Source of the DNA: a virus
DNA length: 64,000 bases
Strand: one strand, 5' to 3'
Virus record (IMG/VR): IMGVR_UViG_3300020183_000007
Location: 96,001-160,000 of that record
Shown one piece after another: positions 678-57,006 of the stretch (position 1 is the stretch's first letter; the number at the start of each line of letters is the position of its first letter). The notes under the pieces are model-generated. The model was not told the origin of the DNA. It searched no databases and was given only the letters and a program-made list of their open reading frames with translations. The position numbers were made by a program, and so were the translations under genes.

Positions 678-682
678 CATCC

Positions 683-9434: not shown

Positions 9435-9459
9435 ATCTACAACAGAAAGGACAAGGGTG

Positions 9460-13812: not shown

Positions 13813-13872
13813 TTTCACATTCTAAAAAATACTGCAAAGTCCTCAAATCTACAGCACAAACAAAGGAGCGTA

Positions 13873-15472: not shown

Positions 15473-15481
15473 CCCTCAAAT

Positions 15482-15510: not shown

Positions 15511-15514
15511 GCTA

Positions 15515-15589
15515 GGGGATGACAGGCGTCGACACAAGGAAAAGCCAAAGTGCACCTTGTGGAACTGGGTTCGAATCCCAGCATCTCCA
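15515..15589 (+). ncRNA. tmRNA-like tRNA-like domain without an mRNA-like domain (75 nt)
   Basis: 5' GGGGATGACAGGCGTCGAC resembles tmRNA 5' ends; acceptor GGGGATG/CATCTCC-A with G3:U70; T-arm CTGGG-TTCGAAT-CCCAG; only a CACAAGG/CCTTGTG hairpin in between. Confidence 0.65.
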
Positions 15590-15713
15590 CTGGGGGACTG
15601 CGTGTATAACGCGTCTTAAACGACACTGTGGTGCGCCCCAAATTCACTCAAATATACACTTATTTTTAATTTCATACAAAAGAGAAAAAACACAGTCAAA
15701 AGGAACAGTCTTT

Positions 15714-15980
15714 ATGAATCAGAACAACATGATCAATTTTGTTACGCTTACGGGCCTTGACGACGAAAGAACTGAAGTTAACCCAGCCAGCATCGTAATG
15801 ATGCAAAGAAGCACCTACGCCCAGTTGCCATGCACTAATGTGTGGCTAATGTTGGGCATCCCATATAAAGTAGTGTGTCGCGAGACACCAGAAGAAATTG
15901 TTCAATTGCAGATGGATGCAATTGGTAAACTCGTGAAAAAGTGCATCAATGTCTTTGAAGAATTAGAAAAGGAGATGTGA
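15714..15980 (+). CDS. FlbD-like family protein, paralog 1
   Basis: FVTLTGLD...EVNPASIVMM...VCRETPEEIV matches the FlbD pattern; paralog at 18185. Confidence 0.55.
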   Translation: MNQNNMINFVTLTGLDDERTEVNPASIVMMQRSTYAQLPCTNVWLMLGIPYKVVCRETPEEIVQLQMDAIGKLVKKCINVFEELEKEM

Positions 15981-16134
15981 TGGAATTTCATATTTGCGAA
16001 GCAGTAACATGCCGGCACAAATGCGAAAAAGAAGGGTGTGACAATCACATCCTGTATCACGACGAACCGTACTGTTTCACACACAGTCCGGATTCAGGCT
16101 CATCATTCAAAAACTATGACTCTAGAAAGGGAGG

Positions 16135-27223: not shown

Positions 27224-28246
27224 ATGAATAAGCCAATTAAACTAAATATTCAAAAAATTACTCCTACACCTTCGGTCACTAGAAAAACCAGAAAGGTCAA
27301 GGAAATTTCCGTTAATACTACTACTAAGCGTACCGCAAAAACTAAGTCTGTTGAAATTGACTCCGACGAAAATTTTGATACCGAGCTTGATCAATACGCT
27401 AATGTTGATATCACAGCTTATCTTCCTACTAATGCCAGCAAGCTTGATTCAAAGGTTTACCCTCGTGACATCCATATTGATCATTCTTACCAAAGACAAA
27501 CCAATCTTGCTAGGGTTAATCAAATTGTAAGAAATTTTACTCCTAACGCTATTGGCACTGTTTATTTGTCTATGCGTGACGATAGTACTCTTCACATCAT
27601 CGACGGTGCTCATCGACTCCTTGCTTTGCGTAAGCTCGGTCTTGATGATTATCCCATCAATGCCCAGGTTTTCTTTGGCTTGACTCCCAAAGAAGAAGCT
27701 GAGTTGTTTGTCATTATGAACGAAGCTCGTGTAAAGCCTCGTCGTCATGAACTTCATAAAGCTTCTGTTACAGCACAAGATCCTTTAGCAATAGAGATTG
27801 ATAATATTATTACTTCTCTTGGTCTTGTTCTTGTTGACGTTCCATTAGATAATCATGTTCGTGCAGTCAAAACTGTTTACACTCTTTACGCTAAAATGAA
27901 CAAGCGTTCATTTATCAATTTGTTTAAAGTGTTGAAGTCGGCTAACGGTTCTTCTTGTGACTCATTTTGTGTTCAATATCTCGTTGCTGTAGCTGTTATA
28001 CTAATTAAGTATCCTACTGTTGATATTGAACGTTTGATTCATGTTATTTCAAAAATGGGTCATCCTAAAGTTGTCATTGGCAATCTTACAGCTTCTGCCG
28101 GTGGAAAAATTACACTTTTGCAAATGCAGCTTGCTATTGCTAGCGTAATTGTTGACAACTATAATTCTCGCTTACGTAATGCTAGGCTTGATAAAACATA
28201 TATTATTACTTCCAATTACAAAACCTACTTAAATCCTGTTGTTTAA
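27224..28246 (+). CDS. ParB/Srx-like N-terminal domain protein
   Basis: IDHSYQRQ...IGTVYLSMR...IIDGAHRLLAL. Confidence 0.7.
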   Translation: MNKPIKLNIQKITPTPSVTRKTRKVKEISVNTTTKRTAKTKSVEIDSDENFDTELDQYANVDITAYLPTNASKLDSKVYPRDIHIDHSYQRQTNLARVNQIVRNFTPNAIGTVYLSMRDDSTLHIIDGAHRLLALRKLGLDDYPINAQVFFGLTPKEEAELFVIMNEARVKPRRHELHKASVTAQDPLAIEIDNIITSLGLVLVDVPLDNHVRAVKTVYTLYAKMNKRSFINLFKVLKSANGSSCDSFCVQYLVAVAVILIKYPTVDIERLIHVISKMGHPKVVIGNLTASAGGKITLLQMQLAIASVIVDNYNSRLRNARLDKTYIITSNYKTYLNPVV

Positions 28247-32863: not shown

Positions 32864-32936
32864 GGGCCTGTAGCCCAACGGCAGAGGCAGAGGACTTAAA
32901 ATCCTTCCAGTGTGGGTTCGAAACCCACCAGGCCCA
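32864..32936 (+). tRNA. tRNA-Leu(UAA), short variable arm
   Basis: GGGCCTG/CAGGCCC acceptor; loop CT-TAA-AA. Confidence 0.88.
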
Positions 32937-32980
32937 CAGGATGGCAGGTTTCTACTCCTTCGGAAACCTGTCATCCGCCT

Positions 32981-33053
32981 GCCTCTTTAGCTCAGTTGGT
33001 AGAGCAGTGGACTTTTAATCCATTGGTCGCAGGTTCAAATCCTGCAGGAGGCA
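32981..33053 (+). tRNA. tRNA-Lys(UUU)
   Basis: cloverleaf; loop CT-TTT-AA. Confidence 0.93.
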
Positions 33054-33055
33054 CT

Positions 33056-33235
33056 ATGAAACCTAAACAATTTATTGATTTACCAGAAAATAAACAAAAA
33101 ATGCTAATTAAAAAAGCTTTTGATTATTTATGTCAAGAAGGTCTTGTCCCTTATGGTGTACAAACCGGTGATGATTGTACTTGGGACACTTATGATCCAG
33201 CTGTTGAATTAGCAGCAGAATGGTATGAAGAATAG
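33056..33235 (+). CDS. small hypothetical protein
   Basis: ATG right after tRNA-Lys; the track start at 32912 overlaps tRNAs. Confidence 0.55.
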   Translation: MKPKQFIDLPENKQKMLIKKAFDYLCQEGLVPYGVQTGDDCTWDTYDPAVELAAEWYEE

Positions 33236-33246
33236 GAGTTATTCTT

Positions 33247-33450
33247 ATGAAAGTTAAAGTTAATTTAGATCTTGTTATGCATATTCCTGGTGAATTCCAA
33301 GATGATGATTTAGCTGTCAAGCTTATTGATAGAGTTCTTCGTGACCAACTTTATGTTGGAGTAGAGTTTGATGATAATGATATGGACGATGTTCTTCCTG
33401 TTGAAGAACTTCACATTAGAATGTATAAACCATTAGCAGGGAAACTTTAA
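33247..33450 (+). CDS. small acidic hypothetical protein
   Basis: AGGAG RBS. Confidence 0.6.
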   Translation: MKVKVNLDLVMHIPGEFQDDDLAVKLIDRVLRDQLYVGVEFDDNDMDDVLPVEELHIRMYKPLAGKL

Positions 33451-33480
33451 TTACATACAGAGACATGGAAATCGTATATT

Positions 33481-33554
33481 GGGGCGGTAGCTCAGTTGGT
33501 TAGAGCAGGGGACTCATAATCCCTGGGTCGCGGGTTCAATTCCTGCCCGCCCCA
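33481..33554 (+). tRNA. tRNA with CAU anticodon (Met or Ile2)
   Basis: GGGGCGG/CCGCCCC acceptor; loop CT-CAT-AA. Confidence 0.9.
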
Positions 33555-34047
33555 CTGAATGCTGTCGCAATTAAACATAAACTTGATATAGATTAATTTC
33601 ATACCGAGATACGAAATCTATTATCATGCGCAATCAATTTCATAACGCGTTGCTTAAATTGTAACAGAATTTATAATTTTGGAAACATAATCAATCATGA
33701 GTTGACTGGTACTGTTGCATACAATAGTACCAACAAATGAAATTAATAGTTCATTAGATAACTCAAAGTGAATCTATTATTCAATAGGTCAAACTAGGGT
33801 ATTGTATTATATTTCCTGGCTATTACACAATACGTAAAATTTTTTATAGACACGAAAGGCACCGTGGGTGAAGTAGTGTCTATAAAAACCTGTAGTGTTT
33901 GTTGTAATAGTCAAAAACTAGGAGATAAAATGTCACTTGCTAAATTTAGAAAAGTATTTAAAGGTCATAAAAAACCTGATCCTCCTTCAACTAAGGTTTT
34001 TCCTGAAAATACTGATCAAAAAAAACAAGGTGACAAATAGTCTCCTA

Positions 34048-34122
34048 GCCGAATTAGCTCAGTGGTAGAGCAACCGCCTTGTAAGCGGTAGGTCCTCAGT
34101 TCAATCCTGAGATTCGGCTCCA
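34048..34122 (+). tRNA. tRNA-Thr(UGU) with encoded CCA
   Basis: GCCGAAT/ATTCGGC acceptor; loop CT-TGT-AA. Confidence 0.93.
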
Positions 34123-34239
34123 TGACAGTAGCCAATTTGCCTCAGTTCCCATAACTGGGGGGACGTGAAATCGTGTATAATGTTGGTGGACCCATATCTC
34201 CTCACGACTACTGTCACCTTATTTTGAAAGGTTAATAAA

Positions 34240-34662
34240 ATGAAGAAAATTATTTTTTTTACTCTTCTTTTAGTTTCTTGTATTTTTACTGCTTCTTGCG
34301 GTGCTAACAAATCTACAGATGAAACAATGCCACCTCTCACTACTGATCTGGATCGTGCATCTGATCAAACTGTCCTAATAACACAACCAATTATAACTTC
34401 TCCGTGGACTCATCGCAATGAAGCTTATTTAGATTATGTTTGGCAAAACGCCGATGTTCCTATCAGTGTTCTTGACTTTAATCTTATGAGCTATGCAGAA
34501 ATATGGTGCGATTTTATGCGTCGTGGAATGTCAAAAACTAATCTTCTTAATTGGATAAATGAAATGGCAACAGATCAAGAAGAAATTGATCTATGGCTTG
34601 TTACTGCTGAAGCTTCATCAATATTTGTTTGTTCTGATCAAGGATACAAATGGAATCCTTAA
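34240..34662 (+). CDS. secreted/lipoprotein-like protein
   Basis: signal peptide ending TASC. Confidence 0.65.
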   Translation: MKKIIFFTLLLVSCIFTASCGANKSTDETMPPLTTDLDRASDQTVLITQPIITSPWTHRNEAYLDYVWQNADVPISVLDFNLMSYAEIWCDFMRRGMSKTNLLNWINEMATDQEEIDLWLVTAEASSIFVCSDQGYKWNP

Positions 34663-35116
34663 TCGAATCAACCCGCTATAAACGAACCATTTCTTGGTTA
34701 GCTAACTATATCAAAACTAATCCTAACGCTGATATGCATTTTCGTACTATTTGTTCTGTTCTCAGACAAGAAAAAAATTATTATATTAAGTGTGTATTGT
34801 TAGACAATAAATATTTATACGGTTCATTTTTGGCTGCAGCTAGGGAAAGTATTAAAGAATGATTATTGTTACGGACAATCCAAATCACGCTGCAATCCTT
34901 TCTCATCGTAAGCCTGGTTATTTAGTTATGAAAGATAATTCTGTTATTAAATTTGACGAACTTTTATATTTTAATGACAATACAGAATGGATTGACCAGC
35001 AACCACCTTTTTATTATTATTGGAATAAAGCTGAAAATTTTCGTTCTGGAGTTTCTGTTTCCAATGTTCGATATATCTACTTTAAAGATGATCGAATATC
35101 CGAGGCTAGCATATAA
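34650..35116 (+). CDS. two small overlapping hypothetical ORFs (34650-34862, 34859-35116)
   Basis: ATGA-coupled ORFs. Confidence 0.5.
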
Positions 35117-35127
35117 ATTATTTGCTA

Positions 35128-35199
35128 GCCCTCGTCGTCTACTGGTTAAGACCCGACTCTTATAAAGTCGTTAAGGTGGTTCAATTCCACCCGGGGGTA
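35128..35199 (+). tRNA. tRNA-Ile(UAU)
   Basis: GCCCTCG/CGGGGGT acceptor, GTCT/AGAC D-stem, CGACT-CT-TAT-AA-AGTCG anticodon arm, GGTGG-TTCAATT-CCACC T-arm. Confidence 0.8.
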
Positions 35200-35201
35200 C
35201 A

Positions 35202-35472: not shown

Positions 35473-35922
35473 ATGAATTCTAATCCTGTTTCCCGTAGAA
35501 GTTTGCCTAAAAATATTGCTGACATTTACGATTCTTTTACCGATTTAACTTCTAAATGGAGAGAAAATGCTTTATGTAAAAATAGCGTTCTTTCTATGGA
35601 AGATTTCTTTTCTATCAATAGTGATAAAAAATCTGTCTATTCAGCTTCAAAAGCTATATCAATGTGTAATTCTTGTCCCGTTCAAGTTGAATGCCTACAT
35701 GAATCTATGAAATATAATTACGATGGCGTTTGGGGTGGGACACTATATCGTCAACGTATATATTTCATTAGAAACTATCTCAATAATGATCTTGCTAATC
35801 TGACTATGGAAAAAGCTAAAGAGTTCGTTCAAATGGCCAAAATCCAAAATCTTACACTTTTTAAAATTAAACGTAAATATCGCAGAAAGGCTGTACAGAA
35901 AGATGACTTACTTTCGCAATGA
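35473..35922 (+). CDS. whiB: WhiB-family Fe-S transcription factor
   Basis: WRENALC...CNSCPVQVEC...GVWGG. Confidence 0.9.
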   Translation: MNSNPVSRRSLPKNIADIYDSFTDLTSKWRENALCKNSVLSMEDFFSINSDKKSVYSASKAISMCNSCPVQVECLHESMKYNYDGVWGGTLYRQRIYFIRNYLNNDLANLTMEKAKEFVQMAKIQNLTLFKIKRKYRRKAVQKDDLLSQ

Positions 35923-37140: not shown

Positions 37141-37927
37141 TACTTCCCTTTATTTTAGCTGGTGTAAGTGCTAAGGTCATTAATAATAGACTGAAAAACA
37201 AAACCCCAGAAAAACAAATTGATATTATATTGGCTAGTTTCTTTACCACAGTAACACCACAACACTTTGGGGAATTCAATGAAAATATCCAAAATTCAAA
37301 TAAAACATCAAGAAGAAAGAGACAAAATACGCACTAAAATATCTAACTTTTTGGAAAATTCTTATTTTGACATACAGAGTCTCACTCCGGGAGCTGCAAT
37401 AGACGAACAGTATTTGGCTAGGGTACTTACAAAGTTAGCGATAGGATCTGCCACTGTATGGTGGTCTATACTAGAAATCAAAGATTTTATTGTTCTTCGT
37501 AAACTCACTAAAGGAGTTAAACGTGACATATCCCAATAATCTTCCGCCATCTTCTAAAATCGCTATGGACAATTTCAACTTTTCTTTCTCAATGGCTAAT
37601 AAAGCTAGTGTTGAAATACAAAAATCTTATGATGCCATTTCAGAAAGAATTCAAGCTATCGTAGAATCTGAAAAGTTTTATGTTTCTGGCATTCCTGTTC
37701 TCAAAAATATTCTTATGCTTGGCGGCACTAAGAATGATCTTAAAAAACTAGCCAAAGCTTTATCTCGTTTGGCGGATCTTGTTGATGTCCATGAAACTCT
37801 TGAAGGCAAAATGAGTCTTGTTAAAGTTATTAATGATGATCCTCATTGGTTTGCTTGGGCTTTTGGTGATTTTTCCAAAGACGTTGATGTGGGCATTGAC
37901 AAGATTTTTAAAGAATTAGACAATTAA
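37128..37927 (+). CDS. three small overlapping hypothetical ORFs (37128-37337, 37267-37539, 37490-37927)
   Basis: ORF run leading into the ubiquitin-like cassette; starts uncertain. Confidence 0.5.
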
Positions 37928-37947: not shown

Positions 37948-39381
37948 ATGAGCAATGTACAATATTCTTTTGTTTCAACAGAAGAAGGGCATCTTACTTT
38001 TCGTTCTTCTGTTAATTCTTTTGGTCTAGACCATGTTACTGATAAGGACATGGTTTCTTTTTATACATCTTTCTCTAATTATGCCTACATTGATACTGGA
38101 TTGATGCCTGTTGATGGTTCAGGTTTATTAGCTCTTCGTTCCGCTGGCAATCATACCCAAATTGTTTATCAACATAAACCAGGTATGTATTATATTAACT
38201 GGGGTTCGCATGAGGGTGACAAGGATGCTGTTAAGTATTATGTTGCTCAACCTTATCGCATTGTTATTGCCGACCTTGTAGATGGAAACATTTACGGTGC
38301 AAGAACATTCTATACACCAATTCCTGTCACTTATCCTGATATACCACTCTATCACGTTAATCTTCCAAATATTAATTGCAAAGGGTATCGTGGCAATGCA
38401 GTAGGCTGGATTTGTTTGTACCATACTGAAGATATAACAAATTATCCTTTTGGAGAAAAGCTTGCCAAAGTTCTTGATCGTTGTTCTGGTACTGAAGCTT
38501 ACAACGATATTAATATGAATGAAACTGATGGTCCTCGTTTCTATTCCGAAAACGAAAAACCAAGTTTTCTTCATGATCCTTTTGAATGGCAAGAATATTC
38601 TCATAAGTATGGATATGAATGGACTCTTGATCCCGACCTATGGATCCCTGTTTTAGTTAAAAATCGCGACGATCAAGGCAAACACGATTATAGTGGTCAG
38701 CCATTAACTTTGGCTGATGCTATTACTGGTAATTATTCTGTTTATTATTCCGATACTGTCATACCCAAACCTGTTAATCAAATACTTCGCTCTGACTATT
38801 CTCTTCCTTCTTCTAAAGTTTTTGCTTGGTTTAAACAAGCTTACAATTCTTCTACCACTCAATCTCCTGTTATTAATGTCATTGAAAAATCTCAAACTAT
38901 TAAAGTAGATCAAAGCAATGCCCAACCAGTATTTGTACCAGAAGAAGATGTATCAGAAGAAGATGTATGGTACTGTGACAACTGTCAAGAAACCTTTTCA
39001 GTTCATGATTGTACTCCAAATACCACATATCATTCTGCCTTTATTTGCGCTCATTGCTTTGAAGATAAATACGTTTATGCTTTAAATACTAACGATTATC
39101 ATCATGCCGAATCTGAAAATATGTTGTGGTTAGCTATTTCGGATGCTTGGATCTATCTTCCCAAGGCATCTCCTGAAACCTACAAATATTGTAGCGATTG
39201 TGATACTGGTATCTATATAACTCACCAAAAATTTGATGAATTCCATATGGCTCCCAAAGAAGCAGATTTACCTGAAACTTGTCTTTCTTGTTATGAACAA
39301 TTTCAAGCTCAACAACATAACTATGAAAATTCTTTAATAGCTTTAGATGAAACGCCAGAAGAAAATACAACGCCTTTTTGA
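37948..39381 (+). CDS. prokaryotic E2 family D-like protein with C-terminal Cys/His-rich region
   Basis: DTGLMP; LYHVNLPNIN...GWICL resembles Prok-E2_D/PRTRC protein B (LY..P..N...G.IC); directly precedes JAB, E1 and Ubl. Confidence 0.65.
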   Translation: MSNVQYSFVSTEEGHLTFRSSVNSFGLDHVTDKDMVSFYTSFSNYAYIDTGLMPVDGSGLLALRSAGNHTQIVYQHKPGMYYINWGSHEGDKDAVKYYVAQPYRIVIADLVDGNIYGARTFYTPIPVTYPDIPLYHVNLPNINCKGYRGNAVGWICLYHTEDITNYPFGEKLAKVLDRCSGTEAYNDINMNETDGPRFYSENEKPSFLHDPFEWQEYSHKYGYEWTLDPDLWIPVLVKNRDDQGKHDYSGQPLTLADAITGNYSVYYSDTVIPKPVNQILRSDYSLPSSKVFAWFKQAYNSSTTQSPVINVIEKSQTIKVDQSNAQPVFVPEEDVSEEDVWYCDNCQETFSVHDCTPNTTYHSAFICAHCFEDKYVYALNTNDYHHAESENMLWLAISDAWIYLPKASPETYKYCSDCDTGIYITHQKFDEFHMAPKEADLPETCLSCYEQFQAQQHNYENSLIALDETPEENTTPF

Positions 39382-39434
39382 TATGACAAACATAAATATA
39401 CAAATAATTAAAATATTAATATTTAGGAGAAATA

Positions 39435-41138
39435 ATGTCTGAACAACTAGCTCTTCCTCTTGAGCAAAACGAAGAAGAATATCTTACATTGGAAGATCTT
39501 AATCCTCTTTGGATTACTCCTGATGGTCTTCCAACTTTTATGGCAGATAGATCTGACATTTGTGAATGTATTGAGTCTTTTGGTTTTAGCATTTATTATA
39601 TTATTGCTAACGAAGCAAAAGAAATTAAGCCTACAAATACTTCTTCTCACTACACTGGTACTGTTACATACAATAATACCAATAAAACAGCTGCCATAAC
39701 TCCTGTTCCTGTTATCGTTAGGTCTTCTCAAATCTATCGTGTTGTTAACAATTTTGTTGGTCGTTCTGTTGCGGCTGTTCGCCCAGAACTTACAAGCGAT
39801 TTTGTTGATATGGAAGAGGAGGCTATTTACAACATGCCTCCAATTCCTTATATTCTCATTGAAAAGCTTGATCAATTCTTTAGACTTGTTGAAGCTCAAC
39901 ATGGTACAGAATCTATCGTGATGCTTACATTTGACCAAGACAAACAGGAATCTGACGGCTGGGGCATACTTGTTCCCGATCAGTCCAATACTTCTGTTCA
40001 CTGCAATTACGATCCAGACAGTATCGCTCAGATTAAACCCGACAATGTCCTCATCGTTGGCTCTGCGCATAGTCATCCTGGAATGAGCGCTTATGCTTCT
40101 GGGACTGATCATGCAGATCAAGCTGATTTTGATGGTATTCACATTACTTTTGGCTGGCAAAAATCTGTAAACAACGGTGCAACTCAATATTATATTGAAA
40201 TGCAAATGGCTGGAAAAGCTTACAAGCTTGATCCAGAAGATGTTTTTGAAGGTTACAATATTGATAGGGCCCCAGATCCTGAAGTTGTAGGATGGACTGA
40301 TAAAGTAAAAAAAGTCAACCCCCCCAGTACGGGGGGTACAGTAACGGCAGTTCCTGGGCAACCTCTGCCCCAACCCCAGGCTCCTATTCAGGCTACTACG
40401 GTGGGTGGACCCAGTAGTAAAAAGCTTACTGGTTATATCAATTATTCCTCTCATATGTTAAATATTATAGATGAGACTATAAGTTATGAACACAAAGCTA
40501 TTCTTGTTTGCGAAGTAACTCCTGCAAATGATAAAACTAAGTTTCATTGTCCATCTTGCTTTTCTTATCTTCCTATCAGTTCTATAACTCGTGATTATTG
40601 TTGTTCTTTTTGTGACGTTCCCTTGTGTCTTCCGGACACTTCAATAGATCAAATAGTTTATGATATATCTAAATATTGTGAAGAAAGAAATATTTCTCAA
40701 GACGCTGTTTTATATATGCTCACTAAAGATATTCAAAATGAATACATGATTTTGAGACTTACTCCAGAGCTAATTACTGATTATCTTGATTATCAATGGC
40801 CAAAAAATAATTCTCCTATTAATGATGAACAGCTTACTCTTTGTTGTTCTCAAACTAAAGATCAATGTTTTTGTGAAGTTCAAATTCTAACTATGGATAC
40901 TTTTGATTTTGATAATTTTATGGGGAATTCTGATGTTTATTCACAACATTCTGATTGCTGGAAGTGTGAGCATTATTACACAGCTCACTGCCCTAGATAC
41001 ATAGATCTTGTAACCACTTTTATGTCTTCTCCTGACAAGAAAGAACCAAAGCAATATTCTGAAACTATTGTTTCAGACGGTTGTGCATATTATAAAGACA
41101 TATATGCATATGAAAGAGATACATATGAACCCCACTGA
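39435..41138 (+). CDS. JAB/MPN (JAMM) metallo-isopeptidase with C-terminal Zn-finger-like region
   Basis: TESIVML...HSHPGMSAYASGTD fits E-xn-HxH-x7-S-x2-D. Confidence 0.88.
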   Translation: MSEQLALPLEQNEEEYLTLEDLNPLWITPDGLPTFMADRSDICECIESFGFSIYYIIANEAKEIKPTNTSSHYTGTVTYNNTNKTAAITPVPVIVRSSQIYRVVNNFVGRSVAAVRPELTSDFVDMEEEAIYNMPPIPYILIEKLDQFFRLVEAQHGTESIVMLTFDQDKQESDGWGILVPDQSNTSVHCNYDPDSIAQIKPDNVLIVGSAHSHPGMSAYASGTDHADQADFDGIHITFGWQKSVNNGATQYYIEMQMAGKAYKLDPEDVFEGYNIDRAPDPEVVGWTDKVKKVNPPSTGGTVTAVPGQPLPQPQAPIQATTVGGPSSKKLTGYINYSSHMLNIIDETISYEHKAILVCEVTPANDKTKFHCPSCFSYLPISSITRDYCCSFCDVPLCLPDTSIDQIVYDISKYCEERNISQDAVLYMLTKDIQNEYMILRLTPELITDYLDYQWPKNNSPINDEQLTLCCSQTKDQCFCEVQILTMDTFDFDNFMGNSDVYSQHSDCWKCEHYYTAHCPRYIDLVTTFMSSPDKKEPKQYSETIVSDGCAYYKDIYAYERDTYEPH

Positions 41139-41889
41139 TTCCAAACGTTTCATTCTTGTTGGCGCTGGAGGAATCGGCACTTGGCTTGCCGCTGGTCTTG
41201 TTCGCCTTCTTGAATGGAAGTTTCCCAATTCTGCTCTTATCATTGTAGATGGCGATACTTACGAAGAAAAAAACAAAGAGCGTCAAGATTTTACTAAGCT
41301 CGGCAATAAAGCCGTTGTCAAAGCTACAGAATTAGTTCCACAATTTCCCAAAACTACAATTATCCCCGTTGCTAAATGGGTTGTTGATGATAATTTTTCT
41401 GGAATTGCGGACGAACAAAGTCCTAAAATTAAAGCTAGTGATCTTATCAGAGAAAACGATGTTATTTTTGCTGTAGTTGACAATTTTGCTGCAAGAAAAA
41501 TACTTTTTGATGCCGCAACAAAACTTAATAACGTTGACGTTTTTACAGGCGGAAATGACGATGCTTTATTTGGTTCTATTTATCATTATCAGAAACGCGA
41601 TGGCGTAGAGATTACTGTTCATCCAGCTGAATTTCATCCAGAATATCATAATCCTCCAGATAAAAATCCTGGTGAACTCAGCTGCCAACAGCGTTCTCAA
41701 ATTGAAGGCGGAACACAGCTTCTTGCTACTAATATGGCGGTTGCATCTTTTATTCTGGGTAGGGTTCAGAAAATTATAGTGTCCAATCAGAGTCCGGAAG
41801 AAACAGAAATTTTCTTCGATCTGGGCATAGGCAAATCTGAGCCGTACAACAGAATGCATTCATCCCTGAATGAAACAATTACAGTATAA
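41125..41889 (+). CDS. ThiF/E1-like ubiquitin-like activating enzyme
   Basis: VGAGGIG, IVDGDTYEEKNKERQ, AVVDNFAARK, candidate catalytic Cys in ELSCQQ. Confidence 0.9.
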   Translation: MNPTDSKRFILVGAGGIGTWLAAGLVRLLEWKFPNSALIIVDGDTYEEKNKERQDFTKLGNKAVVKATELVPQFPKTTIIPVAKWVVDDNFSGIADEQSPKIKASDLIRENDVIFAVVDNFAARKILFDAATKLNNVDVFTGGNDDALFGSIYHYQKRDGVEITVHPAEFHPEYHNPPDKNPGELSCQQRSQIEGGTQLLATNMAVASFILGRVQKIIVSNQSPEETEIFFDLGIGKSEPYNRMHSSLNETITV

Positions 41890-41910
41890 TATAAAATAGG
41901 AGATATTACA

Positions 41911-42165
41911 ATGGAAACCTCAAGTAGCAGTGAAGGACAGCCAAGCCGTTCTTCCGGTATGGCCAATATTCGTTATGGCGTTTACAATCAGCCTAGCAAT
42001 ATTGCCGGTAAGTCAATCAAGGAAGTTCGTGAGCAATTCAGCAAGATTTGGGGAATCCCCAATGATGCTGTCGCATACTGTGGCAAAGATAAGCTTGACG
42101 AGAACGCAGTAATTCAACCTGGTCAGAACGTCGAATTTCACCGTCGTGCTGGCGAGAAGGGCTGA
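41911..42165 (+). CDS. ubiquitin-like (beta-grasp) protein ending in Gly
   Basis: 84 aa, AGKSIKEVR...IQPGQNVEFHRRAGEKG*; follows E1. Confidence 0.8.
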   Translation: METSSSSEGQPSRSSGMANIRYGVYNQPSNIAGKSIKEVREQFSKIWGIPNDAVAYCGKDKLDENAVIQPGQNVEFHRRAGEKG

Positions 42166-42293
42166 TTACTCATATACGAACAGTTGTTTCTAACACTGTT
42201 CGGTAGGGGGAGGATACTCTTTATGGGTATCCTCCCCCTCTCATTTACTTCATTATTTAAAAATCCTACAACTAATATTACGGTGATAAGATA

Positions 42294-43898
42294 ATGTTTG
42301 ACAAAATTAAACTGGGATGTCCCAATCTTTGGCTTCAGTCTTCTGATTTTTCAAGGGTTACTGACATTATTACATCTACTATTTCTCGCAATTTTTACAC
42401 TATGGATTTTGTCAATGGATTTTCTAAGTTTGTTGATGGACAATGGAAACAAATTCTTGTACCTAATCCTGCTTACCCTGAAATGGCCACTGATTCACAT
42501 ATAATCACTTTTGATCCTCAAGTCGCTCTACATTATCTTACTACAGACAAAACTATTACTCGTTCTACATATATTATTAATGTACCTTCATCTCCGGCTG
42601 ATTCCATTACACCTTATTCTTCTATTCTTTACCATTTCAAATCTCTTTATCGCACAGCCTTTTGGGCAGACGATATAGCAGCAATGCCTTTGCAGTTTAT
42701 TTTTATTTCTGCTCTCGAATGCCCAGAAGATTTTGTTCATTTGTTTACTGTTCTAGAAGATTCTTATCCAACTCCGCAAGAACTTTCTACAATCGTTACT
42801 CATATTAATGAATCAGCTCATGACCGTCTTATTACTGGCACTACAGTAAAAGAGATTGTTAACGCTGGTATCGGCCTTTCCGAATCCCAGTTTATTGATC
42901 TGTGCCTAATGTCCGTTGTCAATAATTCTAAAATTGATCCCAAGTATATTTATGATGTCAAAATGGCTAATATAAAGAAGAATGGTATTCTTGAAATACT
43001 TAAGCCTACCATATCTTTTTCTGATATTGGCGGTCTTGATAATATTAAGGATATCATTCGTCGTACTGCTGTTTTGCGTAAAGATCAACATCGTGCAATT
43101 TCTTTTGATGTAGTGCCAATCAGAAGACTTCTTATGGTTGGTGTTCCTGGTACTGGCAAATCTGCTATTTGTCAAGCTACTGCTAAAGAACTCAATCTTG
43201 ATCTTGCACGCACTGGCATTAGCCAAGTTATGAATTCTTTCATTGGCCAATCAGAGGCCAATATGCGTGCAGTCTTTAAGCAGATCAGAGCCATGTCTCC
43301 TTTGTGCGTATGGATTGACGAGTTTGGTCGCGATCTTTCAGGTGGCACAAGTTCTTCTCATGTCGACGGTGGCACAACTGATCGTGTTCACGGTGAGTTT
43401 TTGACTGGTCTCCAAGAACTTCCTGAAGACACATTTTTGTTGTGTGCTGCGAACTCTCTTGATTCTCTGAAACCAGAAATGCTTCGTGCTGACCGATTTG
43501 ACAAAATTATGTTTGTTGGTTTACCTTCTTTTAGTGAACGCAAACATATTTTTCAAATTCATCTTTCTAAAATTGATACAGATCATTCTTTTGATTATGA
43601 TGCTATCGCTGATGCAACTCAGTACATGACTGGTGCTGAGATAGTCTCTTTGATTAAAGAAACTAAATTTTATGTTGTTTCTGAATCTTTGAGACCTATC
43701 GAAACAAATGATATTCTTACTTATGCTTCTAAAATTAAAAATATTATTTGGATGAAACATCATGAAACGGTTGTCTCAATGTACAAATATGCGTTGGAAC
43801 AGTGGGATTGGGCATCCACAGAACAAATGAACGATGCTACAATAATACTATCCAAAACTTCAACGCAAAAACAATCAACATCCGTAACATGGAAATAA
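42294..43898 (+). CDS. AAA+ ATPase (Ycf46-like)
   Basis: Walker A GVPGTGKS, Walker B VWIDE, SRH AANSLDSLKPEMLRADRFD. Confidence 0.9.
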   Translation: MFDKIKLGCPNLWLQSSDFSRVTDIITSTISRNFYTMDFVNGFSKFVDGQWKQILVPNPAYPEMATDSHIITFDPQVALHYLTTDKTITRSTYIINVPSSPADSITPYSSILYHFKSLYRTAFWADDIAAMPLQFIFISALECPEDFVHLFTVLEDSYPTPQELSTIVTHINESAHDRLITGTTVKEIVNAGIGLSESQFIDLCLMSVVNNSKIDPKYIYDVKMANIKKNGILEILKPTISFSDIGGLDNIKDIIRRTAVLRKDQHRAISFDVVPIRRLLMVGVPGTGKSAICQATAKELNLDLARTGISQVMNSFIGQSEANMRAVFKQIRAMSPLCVWIDEFGRDLSGGTSSSHVDGGTTDRVHGEFLTGLQELPEDTFLLCAANSLDSLKPEMLRADRFDKIMFVGLPSFSERKHIFQIHLSKIDTDHSFDYDAIADATQYMTGAEIVSLIKETKFYVVSESLRPIETNDILTYASKIKNIIWMKHHETVVSMYKYALEQWDWASTEQMNDATIILSKTSTQKQSTSVTWK

Positions 43899-43910: not shown

Positions 43911-44552
43911 GTGACTAACAATGCTTATGATAATGTGGAAGATTTTTTATCTTCTATAGACGATGATGGTTCTCCTATTGAAACTATGAAGAATTCTGAT
44001 AACAAAGAATTTCATCAGGAGCTTTATAAGAAATGGTTTAGATCTAAAACTCAATCTGGCTTCTTAGCTATTCGCCCTTGGCATCAAGCTTTGAAGATGA
44101 AAATCGATATTGGTAAAACATCTCCGGAAGGCAAACTTGTTAGTAGTACCGCTGTTTTTGTTGATTCTATTGACTTTTCTGCTTATCTTAAATCCATTAC
44201 TACGGAAAATGCTGTAAACAATTATCCTAAAAACGACAAAATGGGCATTCCTACTGACGAAGGTTTTGTTTCTTATGGTGGCGCCGTCATTGATGGTAAG
44301 CCTATATCTAGAATATTTAAAGCCCATTATTGGCAGTTTGCAGAAACATATGACGCTACTGCTTTTGTTTGGAAGTGTGGCCACTTTGCTGCACGCAAAT
44401 CTGATAGTGGTGCCTTTATTCCCGATATGAAATCACCTTTATCTGTAGATCAAATTAAGGTAACTCGTCAAGATATCTGTTCTATCTCTTATCTTATGAA
44501 TTTATCTTTAATTTCTTATGTTGCAAATACTCAAGATTGGTATGAAATATGA
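43911..44552 (+). CDS. hypothetical protein
   Basis: 213-aa ORF, AGGGGA RBS. Confidence 0.75.
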   Translation: MTNNAYDNVEDFLSSIDDDGSPIETMKNSDNKEFHQELYKKWFRSKTQSGFLAIRPWHQALKMKIDIGKTSPEGKLVSSTAVFVDSIDFSAYLKSITTENAVNNYPKNDKMGIPTDEGFVSYGGAVIDGKPISRIFKAHYWQFAETYDATAFVWKCGHFAARKSDSGAFIPDMKSPLSVDQIKVTRQDICSISYLMNLSLISYVANTQDWYEI

Positions 44553-44935
44553 CGGATAGTAGCGAATATCTTGACAAAACCACTGCAGATTTTCTTACAA
44601 AATTTTTTCAAGATATTATAAACGGTTTAGCAGTTCAGATTGAAGATCGTCTTAAAACTGTAGAAACAGCTATTGAAGGCATTGAAAAGCAAGTTGCTAC
44701 ACTTGTTCTTAGTTATGGGGAACAGGCAGTTTTTACCGAAGCTTTAGTTGGTCAGATTGCTTTTGCCACCGACGAAGCACGTAAAGCCTTTCATGAAACT
44801 TTGCAGCAATCGCGCAAACAAATGCTAGAGGTAATGCAAAATGCATCAAAAGGAATCTTGGCTGACGAAAATCCTAGAGTTGCCTCAGCCGTTAACAACT
44901 TGGCTACAGAAAAGTTATTTGATACAAACTCCTGA
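44549..44935 (+). CDS. coiled-coil hypothetical protein
   Basis: ATGA-coupled ORF. Confidence 0.7.
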   Translation: MTDSSEYLDKTTADFLTKFFQDIINGLAVQIEDRLKTVETAIEGIEKQVATLVLSYGEQAVFTEALVGQIAFATDEARKAFHETLQQSRKQMLEVMQNASKGILADENPRVASAVNNLATEKLFDTNS

Positions 44936-46762: not shown

Positions 46763-48400
46763 ATGTATTTAGATAATCAACATTTTACTAGTGAACAATC
46801 TTTTCTGAATTCAGATTCTTTTATTACTTATTCAATAAATTATTCTAATTCTAACATTGATCCTTTATTGGAATATTCTCGTTATGCACTAATTCTTTCA
46901 AGAAAAAATTTTATTCATCCTAGCACTTTAGATCTTTTTAAAGAAAAATATACTGCTTGCGATCCTGTTGTTCTTAACAATATAGATGAAATATTTTCTA
47001 AAGCTTTAGATCCTCACAAATATAATGATAATTATAATGACGATACAGGCTATCATTATTCTCCTCCGTATGTATTTTCTTCTGAAGCTTCTATTCTTTC
47101 CTCTATATCTATTGAAAACCTTGCGAATATTCATGCTAAATCTTTACAATCTTCTGTTCCTACCTCAACTTACCCCGTAGCAACAAGGTATGTTTCCTCT
47201 AATGGAACGCTGTTTATTGAGCGTCCGCCATTTCAGGCTACCATAGATTACAAACCTGGTAATGCTTCAACTAAAAAGGCAAAGTTGCCTTCCAAAACCG
47301 TATGGATACCTTGGACTATTTATGTATTTAATCCAAATTATCCAGGTGGATCTCAACACATGTATTTTTCCTATAAATCTTTGACTTCTATGTCAGATAG
47401 TTATTATCCTACTTATCTTCCAAATACTCATACTGATGGAAGAATATGCTATTCTAATAGTTTATCTACTCTTCCTATTCTCAGTTCTGATATTACTCCT
47501 GATTCTATGTATTCTTACATGATCAATGAGTTTTTTGCTGGTTCTTGGAATTCTGATCTTGTGAATCCCTGGTACTATATGTTTTATGAAAGACTTAGAA
47601 ATCATATAAAATATTATGAGTATTCTGATCTGGATAAAGAAGAATTTTCATATCGTATGCCTCTTTTGTTCAAATTATTTCATCCTTCTCCTGAAATAAT
47701 GCAACAAGCTGAACTTAACAAGATTCAGAAAATTTGGCAATATTATAATGAAAATATTCCTTCTAGGTTCTTTTATGATTTGCCGTCAGATTTATTTCAC
47801 TATTCTCTTTTGTCTTTATTATCTACTTTTTCTCTTAAAGAAATTCTTTCTGTTCAAGAAGAAGTACATTTGATCTACCAAGACGTAGAACTTAAAGGTA
47901 CAAATTCTATTTTTAATAATTTTCATAATTATCTTAATTTTAAACCTAAATCTTTTGAAGAGATATCTACGCTAAATACACATTTGCGTACAACAACACT
48001 TGTGTCTTCCCATGTTCGTGAGATTGTCAACTTAGCGTGTGCTGAAAATTCTCTTTTTTCTGAATTTGATTATAACAAACTTGACAGACAAATTATTGCT
48101 GTTAATGTTCCTCCTTCAAACACTCCATTCAATCATCTTTCATATCATGCAAGAAATACAGTTTATTTTAATTCAATTAATGAACTTCCATTTGCTCCAT
48201 CTTTTGTTATACCTATATATAATGTTGACAATTCGCAATCTTATTACCTAATTCCTTCTTCTGATATCTCTGTTGAACAACTTTATCTAGAAATGCTTAA
48301 AGTATATATAGATAATAGTCATTATTTTCCTTGTCAATCTACTCCTTTTTATGAAATCTTTCCTTTAAGAAGTGACATTTTATCTCTTAGTCAAGGATGA
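46763..48400 (+). CDS. E2 family D-like paralog 2
   Basis: LFIERPP...WIPWTIY...YYPTYLPNTHTDGRICY. Confidence 0.6.
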   Translation: MYLDNQHFTSEQSFLNSDSFITYSINYSNSNIDPLLEYSRYALILSRKNFIHPSTLDLFKEKYTACDPVVLNNIDEIFSKALDPHKYNDNYNDDTGYHYSPPYVFSSEASILSSISIENLANIHAKSLQSSVPTSTYPVATRYVSSNGTLFIERPPFQATIDYKPGNASTKKAKLPSKTVWIPWTIYVFNPNYPGGSQHMYFSYKSLTSMSDSYYPTYLPNTHTDGRICYSNSLSTLPILSSDITPDSMYSYMINEFFAGSWNSDLVNPWYYMFYERLRNHIKYYEYSDLDKEEFSYRMPLLFKLFHPSPEIMQQAELNKIQKIWQYYNENIPSRFFYDLPSDLFHYSLLSLLSTFSLKEILSVQEEVHLIYQDVELKGTNSIFNNFHNYLNFKPKSFEEISTLNTHLRTTTLVSSHVREIVNLACAENSLFSEFDYNKLDRQIIAVNVPPSNTPFNHLSYHARNTVYFNSINELPFAPSFVIPIYNVDNSQSYYLIPSSDISVEQLYLEMLKVYIDNSHYFPCQSTPFYEIFPLRSDILSLSQG

Positions 48401-49554
48401 GTATGCAAAATTTTAATTATCTTTCATTTACCCCTTATGGTTGCCTTATCAGACATCCTCTATATGATGATGAAATATTTGTTTCTAATTCAAACAATTA
48501 TCTTACCGTTAACGGATCTCAAACTGAAATTCCTGAACGTATAGTTAATCCTATTATTAATTATTTTAATTCTCTTTCTAGTAAATCTACTATTCAAGCT
48601 GACACCGGTATACTCCCACCCGGATTAATTCATGTGGATAATCAATATGTTATTTTTGAACGTCCACCGACTTATCAAAATATACAGTTAATTCCAGCAA
48701 CACTAGAACACATTGACGAAAAATCCTATAAAAAGTATATATTTAGACTTCCAATTCCCTGGACCGTATATTTCGTTTCATATTCCATTTACAATGGTGC
48801 CTATTACCCGTATCGTATAGCCATGTACTTCATGGCTAATTCTTTACAAGGATCAGCTTTAGATTCTCATCGGTTATATTTGCCACCTTTAGTTAATTTT
48901 TATAACAATTCTACTTTATGTAATCCTATGTTTGATAGCATGGATGAAGTAACTCGTTATGAAAATAATGTTTCTGGCGTTATCAACGCTGCTTATAATT
49001 GGATTTGGAACACTGGATCAAACCTTGATTTGACCACCAATATTGTTGAGTGTATTATTCAAGGTAATCAAAATTCTTATTTTCCATCTTCTCATCCCTT
49101 TCATATTAATAATATTGGTTTGTCAAATTACGCTATTTCTTCACATTCTTATTATATTGAATTCCCTTATATAGCTCGTGCTTTTCAAAATTGGGAAAAA
49201 ATATCTATAGATCAAATATCTTCAATTTCCTGGCCTAATCCTTGCACTTGTGAGCAGGTTCACCATCACATACATAATATAGGTACTTCAATGCTTCTTG
49301 ATTATTTTCGAGATCATGATATAGATCCTCTTTCGGTTGCTCTTTCCCCAGAAGAGTCTGAAGAAACTGGTAATCTGTATCATTATAATGAGTTCGCTTA
49401 TTATAATTATCTTCGCAAATTACAATCTCCTCCACTTTATTTTAATCAAGCAGCTGAAACATTTGCATCCAATACTCAAGTCACTTTTCAGGATGCTCTT
49501 TCTCTTGACAAAATCATTTCAAATGTTTTTTTAACTCTTTCTTCTCTTCTATGA
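48397..49554 (+). CDS. E2 family D-like paralog 3
   Basis: DTGILP...IFERPP...PIPWTVY...LYLPPLVNFYNNSTLC. Confidence 0.6.
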   Translation: MSMQNFNYLSFTPYGCLIRHPLYDDEIFVSNSNNYLTVNGSQTEIPERIVNPIINYFNSLSSKSTIQADTGILPPGLIHVDNQYVIFERPPTYQNIQLIPATLEHIDEKSYKKYIFRLPIPWTVYFVSYSIYNGAYYPYRIAMYFMANSLQGSALDSHRLYLPPLVNFYNNSTLCNPMFDSMDEVTRYENNVSGVINAAYNWIWNTGSNLDLTTNIVECIIQGNQNSYFPSSHPFHINNIGLSNYAISSHSYYIEFPYIARAFQNWEKISIDQISSISWPNPCTCEQVHHHIHNIGTSMLLDYFRDHDIDPLSVALSPEESEETGNLYHYNEFAYYNYLRKLQSPPLYFNQAAETFASNTQVTFQDALSLDKIISNVFLTLSSLL

Positions 49555-55017: not shown

Positions 55018-55849
55018 CCTAATCAAATTCCATATGTTTATATTAATTTTTTTTATTAGTTTATTTTTCTATTTTTTTTTCACATCAAACGTTTTGGCTT
55101 ATAATTTTACTTTAAATAATTCTCAAAAAGTATGTGTTACTTCTGGATCAAATACACCACCTTCTCAAGGAACTCTTTATTGGGTTAATTATTCTAATCC
55201 TCCTGCAAATCCAGCTTACACATATATTTCTTTAGATTCTTGGGATTCTTTATCAATTGATCAAAAGTTTTATATCAAACCTTCTTGGACTTTTATTTTT
55301 TCTGGAAATTGTAGTTCTTTAAATGTTACTTATGTATTTTCGGATAACAGTCCTTCTACTACTATTTTTCAATCTATCCCTTCTACTACTGTCATTCCCT
55401 TTATTCCTTCTACTACTATTTTTCAATCTATTCCTCCTTTTACTACCATCCCTAATCTTACTCCTACTACAGAAATTTTGTTGCCTCCAGTTTCTAGTGT
55501 AGAACCTTCTATTCCAACTACTGATACAATTGTTGACAACGAAAAACAAAAGTCTGTCCCTGTTGCCAATACTTTACCTAATTATAATAAAGTTACTACT
55601 ACCATTTTTGAATCTACAACTACATTAGCTTATCATTCTGATACGACTCTTACTGATCAAAAAGATCAATCAAAAATTTTACCTCTTGATGATCAACCTA
55701 GTCAATATGATCCAAAATATGTTGCTCTATACGCACTTATAGCTTTTCTTGTATTTCTTTTACTTAATAATTTTATTAAATATACCCAAATTTATAAGTA
55801 TGGCCATGAAACTTGGCCTCAAAGAATATGGAGGGTTTTTTTCAAGTGA
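55007..55849 (+). CDS. secreted/membrane protein with Thr/Pro/Ser-rich linker
   Basis: signal peptide, PSTTIFQSI repeats, C-terminal TM. Confidence 0.7.
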
Positions 55850-57006
55850 AAAAAATTTATAAGATACCTTTATTATTTATAGTAATTTTTTTGTTCGTTT
55901 CAATATCTTATGTTAAAGCTTCTAATACAAATTCAACGCCAACTTCTGTTTTTATACCTATTGCTCCAACAAGAATATTAGACACTCGTTCTTCTTACAA
56001 AGTTGGTTCTCTTGACGGTTCTTCTAGTCCATATATTCTTCAGGTTTCTGGATCAATATCTATTCCTCAATCTAATGTTCAAACTATCGTTCCGTTAAAT
56101 AGTTATGCAGTTTCCTTAAATTTAACGGCTACTCAAACTCAAGCTAATAATTTTGGTGGATACATTACAGTATATCCTTGCGGCGAAAGACCCGATGTTT
56201 CTAATATAAATTTTATTAACGATCAAACAATAGCCAACTCTGTTTCGGTCCCACTATCTGAATCTGGGAGTATTTGCATATATGTTTATGGAAGATCTCA
56301 CATACTTATAGACATTGCTGGATATTATCAAGTTATATCTTTTACTGGAGGTCAACTTGTTAGGGGTCCAGCGGGTCCATCAGGTCCACAAGGTCCAGCA
56401 GGTGCTACGGGAGCTACTGGTGCAACTGGTGCAACTGGTCCTACTGGCCCAACAGGGGCTACAGGTGCAACCGGACCGACTGGCCCGACAGGAGCAACGG
56501 GAGCAACAGGGGCGCAAGGACTTCAGGGCCCAACTGGACCACAAGGTTTACAGGGTTTACCCGGCCCTCAAGGTCCCGCTGGAAATAGTTATACAGTAAT
56601 GCCTATTTTAGCTCAAACGTACAGTAATTCTTATTATGACATATTAACTTTTAATGCTTCCTCCGATCAAATAATTCTTGGAGTTAAGTGTCAAAAAGAT
56701 CTTGGTAGTGATATCGTAAGACATTATGTCAGAACATCTACACCAACTAATTCAATTATACAAGGCTATTATTTATCCAATCGATTTACATATAACAATT
56801 CTTCTGCATCGGGCTCTGTTCTCCACGGTATAAACGCTTTTCCTGGTTCAAATAAAGAAATAGCTATTTGGAACGGTGGAGAGACATCTTACGATGGTCA
56901 CTATGAAATTCATATTATGACTCAAACTAATTTTATAGAAATACAATTATTTGTTCAAATTACTTCAAATAATTGTAAATATTCTGTTGCTTATACAGTT
57001 TCTTAA
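55813..57006 (+). CDS. collagen-like protein with actinobacterial-type N-terminal surface domain
   Basis: [11 protein letters not shown]...AVSLNLTAT...GYITVYPCG...QTIANSV...[10 protein letters not shown], then about 24 Gly-X-Y triplets. Confidence 0.85.

Follow-up and report, generated by a model that had tools for sequence, protein, structure and literature searches.

A putative ubiquitin-like conjugation cassette, distantly related to PRTRC, in the core genome of a clade of large lake-water phages

The DNA analyzed here is a window of 64,000 nucleotides, bases 96001-160000 of an IMG/VR virus record (IMGVR_UViG_3300020183_000007) of 179,608 bp that is judged 85% complete; phage DNA nearly identical to it is present in 20 lake-water metagenome runs, with no RNA run listed among them. 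On its + strand, positions 37948-43898 of the window hold five contiguous and co-oriented open reading frames (ORFs; 477, 567, 273, 84, and 534 aa), as an initial annotation made from the sequence had described, and these are predicted to encode, in order, an E2-like protein, a JAB/JAMM metallopeptidase, a ThiF-type E1, a ubiquitin-like (Ubl) modifier, and an AAA+ ATPase. The motifs named in that annotation (E2-like, JAMM, ThiF/E1 with a candidate cysteine, the glycine tail of the Ubl, and AAA) are all present and conserved in relatives, and a complete E2-JAB-E1-Ubl set is supported by Pfam matches, fold predictions, and a chain of remote homology. The initial annotation omitted two more E2-like paralogs, here called E2b and E2c, that belong to the same system and are located 3 kb downstream of the five-gene cassette.

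The first gene of the cassette (37948..39381, + strand) encodes a 477-aa E2-like protein, E2L, identified from alignments, an AlphaFold2 (AF2) model, and profile-profile comparison. Its E2-like motif reads LYHVNLPNINCKGYRGNAVGWICLY, and residues 1-290 make up a conserved domain with a candidate catalytic cysteine, Cys156, and an HxNxPN motif. Among 60 diverse family members aligned, N141, G153, W154, and C156 are invariant (60/60) and H136, N138, and P140 reach 90% conservation or more, such that the candidate catalytic cysteine is preceded by an HPN-type asparagine (N141), the arrangement found in ubiquitin-conjugating (UBC) enzymes. Residues ~340-450 contain four CxxC pairs that resemble zinc ribbons, in a region that varies in length, and relatives range from 455 to 679 aa overall. 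A HMMER scan of 1.84 billion representatives recovered 213 clusters of this family at 50% identity, 185 of them with E < 1e-30, and delimited a sharply bounded family in which the N-terminal 290 residues are common and the C-terminal CxxC arrays differ.

The predicted fold of E2L is suggestive of an E2 when taken alone. The AF2 model is confident (predicted local distance difference test [pLDDT] 93.8), and the order of its secondary-structure elements fits the UBC topology. When residues 40-230 were searched with VIA-align, the matches were mostly UBC enzymes, ubiquitin E2 variants (UEVs), and RWD domains (with a few FTS proteins), often covered over the whole E2; UBC, UEV, or RWD chains made up 22 of the 50 matches listed in a wide search and ~38 of 50 in a second look, at Z 3.5-4.2 and a root-mean-square deviation (rmsd) of 5-6 A, a similarity too weak to stand alone. 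In the ESM Atlas, the neighbors of E2L are viral clusters with PF14460 (Prok-E2_D) in 13-15% of their members. Separately, the N-terminal subdomain of E2L (residues 1-46, 37948-38085) resembles nucleic-acid-binding units of the PC4/Pur-alpha/Whirly type (Z 4.3-4.9, rmsd 1.8-3.6 A over 43-53 residues), a match too weak for interpretation.

A further indication of what E2L may be comes from its two paralogs. E2b (46763..48400, + strand, 545 aa) has the motif PN.H.DGRIC with an invariant Cys229, and E2c (48397..49554, + strand, 385 aa) has the motif LP.L.NFY...LC with an invariant Cys175. Their kinship with E2L is not significant by BLASTP and is visible only by profile comparison, for which we used hhalign on aligned orthologs of each of the three proteins together with a reference set for PRTRC_B, the E2-like component of the ParB-Related, ThiF-Related Cassette (PRTRC). 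This set consists of ten true Prok-E2_D proteins from Bacteroidota genomes, and both of the two that were scanned against NCBIfam match the PRTRC_B model, TIGR03737. Within the phage, E2L matches E2c at 97.5% (E 5.4e-12), E2c matches E2b at 98.8% (E 4.9e-17), and E2L matches E2b at 79.8% (E 1.5e-5). Toward PRTRC_B, E2b reaches 73.5% (E 2.9e-5) and E2c 27% (E 6.7e-4), and a merged E2b and E2c profile reaches 86.9% (E 4.2e-6), with the G-x-[IV]-C motif and the cysteine aligned; the invariant cysteine of E2b and E2c falls on C167 of PRTRC_B. E2L in turn matches the merged profile at 96.4% (E 1.4e-9), placing C156 on the shared cysteine, an alignment that needs a family-specific seven-residue insert, CKGYRGN. 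Five unrelated neighboring genes compared with the same profiles as negative controls gave at most 1.3%. From this chain and its controls, the independent Atlas placement, and a weak direct match to PF14460 in the E2c ortholog of one related locus (L025), we conclude that the phage has three E2-like paralogs of distant kinship to PRTRC_B, each with an invariant cysteine.

The JAB and E1 genes are recognized more directly, and the searches proposed with the initial annotation were successful for these two components: Prok-JAB and ThiF match above their cut-offs, with no match for Prok-E2_D and no family match for the Ubl. The JAB/JAMM metallopeptidase (39435..41138, + strand, 567 aa) matches Pfam Prok-JAB (PF14464; E 8.8e-6) at 26 bits against a cut-off of 25 and NCBIfam PRTRC_A at E 3.8e-4. 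Its core spans residues ~100-295 and contains the full E...HxH-x7-S-x2-D signature, with E159, H212-x-H214, S222, and D225 invariant in 13 relatives, and is followed by a Cys-rich C-terminal domain. The E1 ORF opens at 41068 (273 aa), and relatives place its real start at the ATG at 41125, giving a ThiF/MoeB-type adenylating enzyme of 254 aa (41125..41889, + strand) that matches Pfam ThiF (PF00899; E 3.8e-12) at 46.3 bits against a cut-off of 28.1. Its best NCBIfam match is PRTRC_ThiF (E 8.3e-6), and the PADLOC model for CBASS E1-E2 matches weakly (E 1.2e-6). The nucleotide loop GAGGIGT, R53/Q54, and D119 are invariant, in line with the Rossmann GxGxxG loop, Arg finger, and Mg-binding Asp expected of ThiF/MoeB/E1 adenylating enzymes, and the protein is a single ThiF domain of 251-269 aa in relatives. 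Its sole invariant cysteine, C187 in PGELSCQ, is a candidate for the catalytic cysteine, judging from its position after the adenylation core.

The Ubl modifier (41911..42165, + strand, 84 aa) was identified from an AF2 model, Foldseek matches, and an invariant tail. The model, built on an alignment of 15 orthologs (pLDDT 78), predicts a beta-grasp core with the order bb-a-bb-b, a disordered N-terminal stretch of 17 residues, and a flexible free tail, RRAGEKG-COOH, that would leave the C-terminal glycine exposed. The top Foldseek matches are ubiquitin variants, SUMO1, NEDD8, ISG15, and FAT10 (probability 1.0, TM 0.55-0.68), in keeping with the beta-grasp fold first proposed for this protein. 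The tail EFHRRAGEKG is invariant in 15 of 15 aligned sequences, the ortholog in a very diverged locus (L046) ends in GQKG, and bona fide PRTRC_C proteins end in GTKG. Since all of these keep a G-x-K-G end, the terminal glycine with this tail appears to be the conserved functional end of the modifier. In five loci, two residues follow the glycine: GSL or GNI in L013-15 and L023, and GEKG-SK in the more distant L026. These extensions imply a processing step in some Ubl lineages, and because they are present the JAB very probably matures the tag there. The initial annotation had limited the JAB to deconjugation on the ground that the Ubl already ends in glycine, and the extended tails argue against that restriction.

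The fifth gene (42294..43898, + strand) encodes an AAA+ ATPase of 534 aa with strong matches to Pfam AAA (PF00004; E 1.2e-23) and AAA_lid_3 (PF17862), NCBIfam CDC48 (E 5e-33) and PAN (E 1.4e-32), and the PHROGs family phrog_8638 (E 2.4e-66). An uncharacterized N-terminal domain (residues 1-230) precedes one classical AAA module and its lid. The module is closest to D2 of Cdc48/VAT, which also give the best matches among PDB sequences, and has the Walker A (GVPGTGKS), Walker B (WIDEF), and pore loop (F-I-G) features of classical AAA proteins. No proteasome-type protease accompanies it: PF00227 finds none in the 180-kb record, and none is among the Pfam matches of the downstream ORFs. Between the Ubl stop codon and the AAA gene lie two hairpins (42177..42239, + strand; fold -43.5 kcal/mol, z = -6.0), the second of which (42205-42239) is G-rich with a 15-bp stem and runs into a T/A-rich stretch. 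The GGGGGAGG...CCTCCCCC stem and T-run recur at the same place in relatives with changed loop and stem letters, and a conserved A/T-rich stretch lies 5' of the AAA gene. The hairpin is probably a terminator or an RNA or protected 3' end, and because the conserved hairpin and T-run separate the two genes, the arrangement suggests that E2L-JAB-E1-Ubl form one transcription unit and that the AAA gene starts another.

The cassette is conserved as a block. Including the 145-aa gene that precedes it, the two genes that follow it, and the distal paralogs, 23 IMG/VR loci share the order g37490-E2L-JAB-E1-Ubl-AAA-g43911-g44549...E2b-E2c, with E1 67-95% identical across them, and L025 has it as well. 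More distant loci retain parts of it: E2L-JAB-x-ThiF-Ubl-x-AAA in L046, WhiB-x-E2L-JAB in L045, and, in L026, E2L-JAB-E1-Ubl, after which come genes for an HNH endonuclease and a ParB/DGQHR-like protein (L026:7723-9363). Ratios of nonsynonymous to synonymous substitution (dN/dS) are put at 0.03-0.16 for the five genes; against three relatives they are 0.03-0.07 for E1 and 0.07-0.26 for the others, and 0.04-0.05 for the Ubl against two relatives, with synonymous sites saturated against the third; synonymous sites are near saturation generally, making all of these values rough. The cassette genes are under strong purifying selection, and because the order is kept in 23 loci and dN/dS is low, the five-gene arrangement is not due to chance. 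The placement in a phage core region that was first proposed is thus borne out, as a conserved block of a phage clade. Neither the cassette nor E2L had a match in 50,697 GenBank phage records (megablast, tblastn), and among 185,579 species genomes there were two matches only, both short contigs of metagenome-assembled genomes (MAGs). These are probably mis-binned phage DNA, and therefore give no reliable host information. One contig of 267,766 bp (IMGVR_UViG_3300042868_009074) has two diverged cassette copies ~215 kb apart (L019 and L021), with E1 copies 76% and 72% identical to the query E1; the probable cause is an assembly that joined two related phages, as a chimera or concatenate, and not a true duplication.

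Some of the genes around the cassette are conserved with it. Directly 5' of the E2L gene in nearly all related loci (tblastn) is a conserved gene of 145 aa (37490..37927, + strand), for which Pfam, NCBIfam, PADLOC, and PHROGs give no significant family match, and always 3' of the AAA gene are two conserved genes of 213 and 128 aa (43911..44935, + strand) that have no family or Atlas match, the ESM Atlas search with the 213-aa protein yielding no usable match. Further upstream are tRNA genes (32864-35200), a WhiB-like regulator, a helicase, and a dCMP deaminase, and downstream are a single-stranded DNA-binding protein and a protein of the uracil-DNA glycosylase family. The cassette thus sits among early or middle genes rather than recognizable virion genes, and therefore its setting suggests that it acts within the infected cell. 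The WhiB-like gene (35473-35922, + strand; Pfam Whib E 2.9e-11) precedes the cassette by ~2 kb, and the distant L045 likewise has one upstream (L045:2573-3070). WhiB-like genes are typical of actinobacterial phages, and this one is possibly a host clue or possibly a regulator of the cassette block. The host clues conflict: WhiB suggests actinobacteria, whereas Bacteroidota and Gammaproteobacteria are indicated by the MAG bins and by the label on one protein.

Several other features of the window are worth recording. It contains seven tRNA genes between 18714 and 53627 (Arg-TCT, Leu-TAA, Lys-TTT, Met-CAT, Thr-TGT, Ile-TAT, and Asn-GTT), five of which form the cluster just 5' of the cassette at 32864-35200. 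Its G+C content shifts sharply, from 46-54% with positive GC skew over positions 1-16000 to 30-42% over 16001-64000, which is unusual within one phage genome. The high-GC part holds a Pistol ribozyme (13273-13340, + strand), an Rfam match above the gathering score (48 versus 34.5 bits), and a short match to the Rfam transfer-messenger RNA model (15515-15592, + strand; 54.6 versus 47 bits). A 397-aa ORF at 55813-57006 (+ strand) has collagen triple-helix repeats (Pfam Collagen E 4.3e-14) and is possibly a fiber or structural protein.

Taken together, the gene content, motifs, conservation, predicted folds, and remote homologies favor the reading, to which we give a probability of roughly 0.72, that this is a phage-encoded Ubl-conjugation system, a distant and elaborated relative of PRTRC, carried as a core block by a clade of lake-water phages of ~180-270 kb. 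By family precedent, the short ThiF-type E1 would adenylate Gly84 of the Ubl, with a thioester at Cys187 probable, and the tag would then pass to the invariant cysteine of one of the E2-like paralogs (Cys156 of E2L, Cys229 of E2b, or Cys175 of E2c). The differing C-terminal extensions of the E2s, including the variable zinc-ribbon arrays, may select the targets, with no recognizable E3, as in Bil, and the tag would end on target lysines. The JAB/JAMM enzyme would trim the two-residue tail after the glycine in some lineages and remove the tag from conjugates. The least certain step is the last, in which the Cdc48-like single-ring AAA unfoldase may act on tagged proteins. The AAA is plausibly coupled to the cassette; its action on conjugates, the identity of the targets, and any role in counter-defense are speculative. 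The proposals of the initial annotation that host or phage proteins are tagged for extraction, and that this counters host defenses based on Ubl or pupylation, find no support in the present data. We hold only tentatively, and rather doubt as a whole, the fuller proposal that a widespread clade of large freshwater phages runs a ubiquitin-style pathway in its core infection program, in which one E1 and one tag serve three target-specific E2s, the JAB matures and erases the tag, and a dedicated unfoldase acts on tagged host or phage proteins. On that proposal, ubiquitin-like tagging would be a tool of viral takeover in bacteria in addition to a host defense.

A number of observations weigh against a conjugation system. 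No Pfam, NCBIfam, PADLOC, or PHROGs model matches E2L directly, and for this reason its identity as an E2 rests on remote homology and fold; searching 60 members of its family against Pfam found no E2 family, Prok-E2_D (PF14460) finds nothing at E <= 10 in the whole 180-kb record, and E2b and E2c have no direct hidden Markov model match to any E2 family. Compared directly with PRTRC_B, E2L stays at noise level (2.5%, E 0.018), similar to the values given by the five control genes, and its structural resemblance to UBC enzymes is weak, as noted above. Foldseek found no significant match of the E2L model in the PDB, and single-sequence and profile searches of PDB sequences returned nothing meaningful for either E2L or E1. 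The proposed role of Cys187 is drawn from its position, and the profile match of E1 to PRTRC_ThiF spans the Rossmann half only. The Ubl has no family match in Pfam, NCBIfam, PADLOC, or PHROGs, no PDB sequence match, and no hhalign signal against PRTRC_C. Two further points concern the ATPase: the terminator-like hairpin conserved between the Ubl and AAA genes, and L026, where no AAA gene lies within 2.8 kb downstream of the Ubl.

These last two points lend weight to an alternative in which the core consists of E2L-JAB-E1-Ubl and the two distal E2 paralogs, and the AAA is an unrelated neighbor that, for example, remodels replication or assembly complexes. In the same direction, the conserved A/T-rich stretch sets off the AAA gene, HNH and ParB/DGQHR-like genes take its place after the Ubl in L026, another gene intervenes between Ubl and AAA in L046, and the AAA belongs to a PHROGs phage family, the rest of the cassette having no PHROG match. 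Such an alternative has a real chance of being right, though we would bet against it, since the AAA gene follows the Ubl in 24 of 25 loci with enough flanking sequence, including the very distant L046, and since eukaryotes, archaea, and actinobacteria as a rule pair their Ubl systems with unfoldases of the Cdc48, PAN, or Mpa type. The inclusion of the AAA by the initial annotation is qualified by the intervening hairpin and by L026.

Two other explanations give the whole block a different purpose. It could be a phage-borne defense or superinfection exclusion system that tags the proteins of competing phages in the manner of Bil. The bacterial relatives are anti-phage, Bil and type II CBASS having been characterized as such and Bub operons proposed to be (PMC11601596), and an arms race over targets could lie behind the variable C-terminal domains of the three E2s. 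Defense cargo, however, usually has a patchy distribution, and every relative sampled has this block, with its synteny kept and strong purifying selection acting on it. Its surroundings are replication and transcription genes, and it matches no PADLOC system model beyond generic E1 and AAA similarity. Together these points make a defensive role improbable. Still less probable, to the point that we give it little credence, is a sulfur-carrier or non-protein modification pathway of the ThiS/MoaD type, in which the E1 and the beta-grasp protein would work together and the E2-like proteins would not be conjugating enzymes. The E1 is indeed short, single-domain, and ThiF/MoeB-like, its NCBIfam matches include MoeB, ThiF, and SAMP-activating E1 with similarly weak scores, and the evidence from the E2 fold is weak. 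Yet such a pathway fits poorly with an intact and tightly linked JAB gene, with three E2-like paralogs whose invariant cysteines each align to the PRTRC_B cysteine, and with a Ubl whose best structural matches are ubiquitin and SUMO, not ThiS or MoaD; moreover, no rhodanese, cysteine desulfurase, thiamine, or molybdopterin gene was found with Pfam and NCBIfam among the cassette and flanking genes scanned.

To our knowledge, the characterization of bacterial Ubl conjugation, in the form of Bil, type II CBASS, and Bub, dates from the last few years and concerns host anti-phage immunity only. If the reading as a conjugation system is correct, a vertically conserved phage conjugation set would represent viral use of the same chemistry. 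The phage system would add three diverged E2s and an adjacent unfoldase to what such sets contain, and as a compact E3-free system it would be suited to asking how E2s choose their targets. For the uncharacterized PRTRC family it would also supply a strongly conserved relative that lends itself to biochemistry, with small proteins, clearly predicted catalytic residues, and a direct assay of the JAB in those relatives whose tags have precursor tails. Beyond the initial annotation, the present analysis adds the PRTRC_B homology chain with its controls, the precursor tails, the shared G-x-K-G end, the terminator-like element, and the absence of a detectable proteasome-type protease.

Among known systems, the closest parallel is PRTRC, which is found on plasmids, integrative and conjugative elements, and Bacteroidota chromosomes and comprises a JAB (PRTRC_A, TIGR03735), an E2 (PRTRC_B, TIGR03737, equivalent to Pfam Prok-E2_D), a Ubl (PRTRC_C, TIGR03738), and an E1 (PRTRC_ThiF, TIGR03736). 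As in PRTRC, the Cys-containing E2, the JAB, the short single-domain ThiF-type E1, and the tag of ~70-85 aa are each encoded by a gene of their own, and the tag ends in G-x-K-G (GTKG in PRTRC_C, GEKG or GQKG in phages); PRTRC_A and PRTRC_ThiF are the best NCBIfam matches of the phage JAB and E1, and the E2 paralogs align to PRTRC_B with the cysteine in register. A ParB/DGQHR-like gene is present two genes after the Ubl in L026; in the window one lies 10 kb upstream of the cassette (27224-28246), not adjacent to it. A ParB link would echo the ParB-related half of PRTRC. The differences are substantial. The JAB scores 20.1 bits against a PRTRC_A cut-off of 101.8 and the E1 25.3 against 144.75, whereas true Bacteroidota members score ~130-250, and neither the E2-like proteins nor the Ubl match the PRTRC or Prok-E2_D models directly, which places the cassette outside curated PRTRC membership. 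The phage genes run E2-JAB-E1-Ubl, as opposed to Ubl...E2-E1; each of the three E2 paralogs is much larger than the ~240-aa PRTRC_B; E2L and the JAB end in Cys-rich domains; the cassette is linked to an AAA unfoldase gene; and the replicon is a large phage of lytic type. The resemblance to PRTRC operons noted initially is real, through the best matches of JAB and E1 and through the E2 paralogs, and distant; because the best NCBIfam matches fall far below cut-off, we regard the cassette as a distant PRTRC-like relative and not as a PRTRC member. The matches listed for PRTRC in the searchable literature are genome-annotation or transcriptome reports, none of them on function.

Bil (BilABCD, types I and II) likewise consists of a Ubl, a stand-alone E2, a JAB/JAMM peptidase, and an E1 with no E3, and the Bil E2 is considered to select its target unaided (PMC11601596). 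The phage cassette shares this composition, with no recognizable E3, and thioester chemistry is expected in both because the E1 and E2 cysteines are conserved in the phage. Unlike Bil as described there (PMC11601596), the phage E1 is a single domain of 254 aa and so has a different architecture, there are three E2s instead of one, and the genes form a phage core block instead of a host defense system; no sequence-level match to Bil was seen with PADLOC models or in PDB sequence searches. Type II CBASS (Cap2/Cap3) and Bub are likewise bacterial machineries of the E1/E2/JAB kind with a relation to ubiquitination, and the PADLOC CBASS E1-E2 models weakly match the Rossmann part of the phage E1, but Cap2 is an E2-E1 fusion that conjugates the CD-NTase and not a free Ubl, and in the phage the E1 and E2 genes are separate. 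Bub (6E/DUF6527) forms Ser/Tyr oxyesters without a catalytic cysteine and uses a DUF6527 protease, unlike the phage proteins with their invariant cysteines. Neither DUF6527 nor a CD-NTase was matched among the cassette and flanking genes scanned. With the Ubl-unfoldase pairs known elsewhere (ubiquitin with Cdc48/26S Rpt, archaeal SAMP with PAN/Cdc48, and actinobacterial Pup with Mpa/ARC), the cassette shares a small-tag gene adjoining a classical-clade AAA that has an aromatic-hydrophobic-Gly pore loop; unlike these, the phage AAA is a single module with an unrelated N-terminal domain of 230 aa, and its functional pairing with the tag is putative.

We found no paper on a phage-encoded core conjugation system with E1, E2, JAB, and Ubl; the literature searches returned only bacterial defense papers and a report of an Asgard-virus E1. 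The only GenBank phage relatives found are the JAB-ThiF pairs of the Bacillus jumbo phages vB_BceM_WH1 (gp215-gp216) and Edson. In WH1, gp215, annotated as hypothetical, lies directly 5' of the ThiF gene gp216 (L044, record 182508-184817), and Edson has the same ThiF. These E1 proteins are 26-28% identical to that of the lake-water phage, the order of JAB then E1 is the same, and gp215 shows homology to the phage JAB (hhalign 94%) that takes in the stretch on the N-terminal side of the JAMM core. Unlike in the lake-water clade, no Ubl follows the ThiF gene in WH1 (the next gene is annotated as a NADAR family protein), no AAA gene is adjacent, and gp213 gives no signal against E2L. WH1 and Edson have both been cultured and would allow study of the JAB-E1 pair at least.

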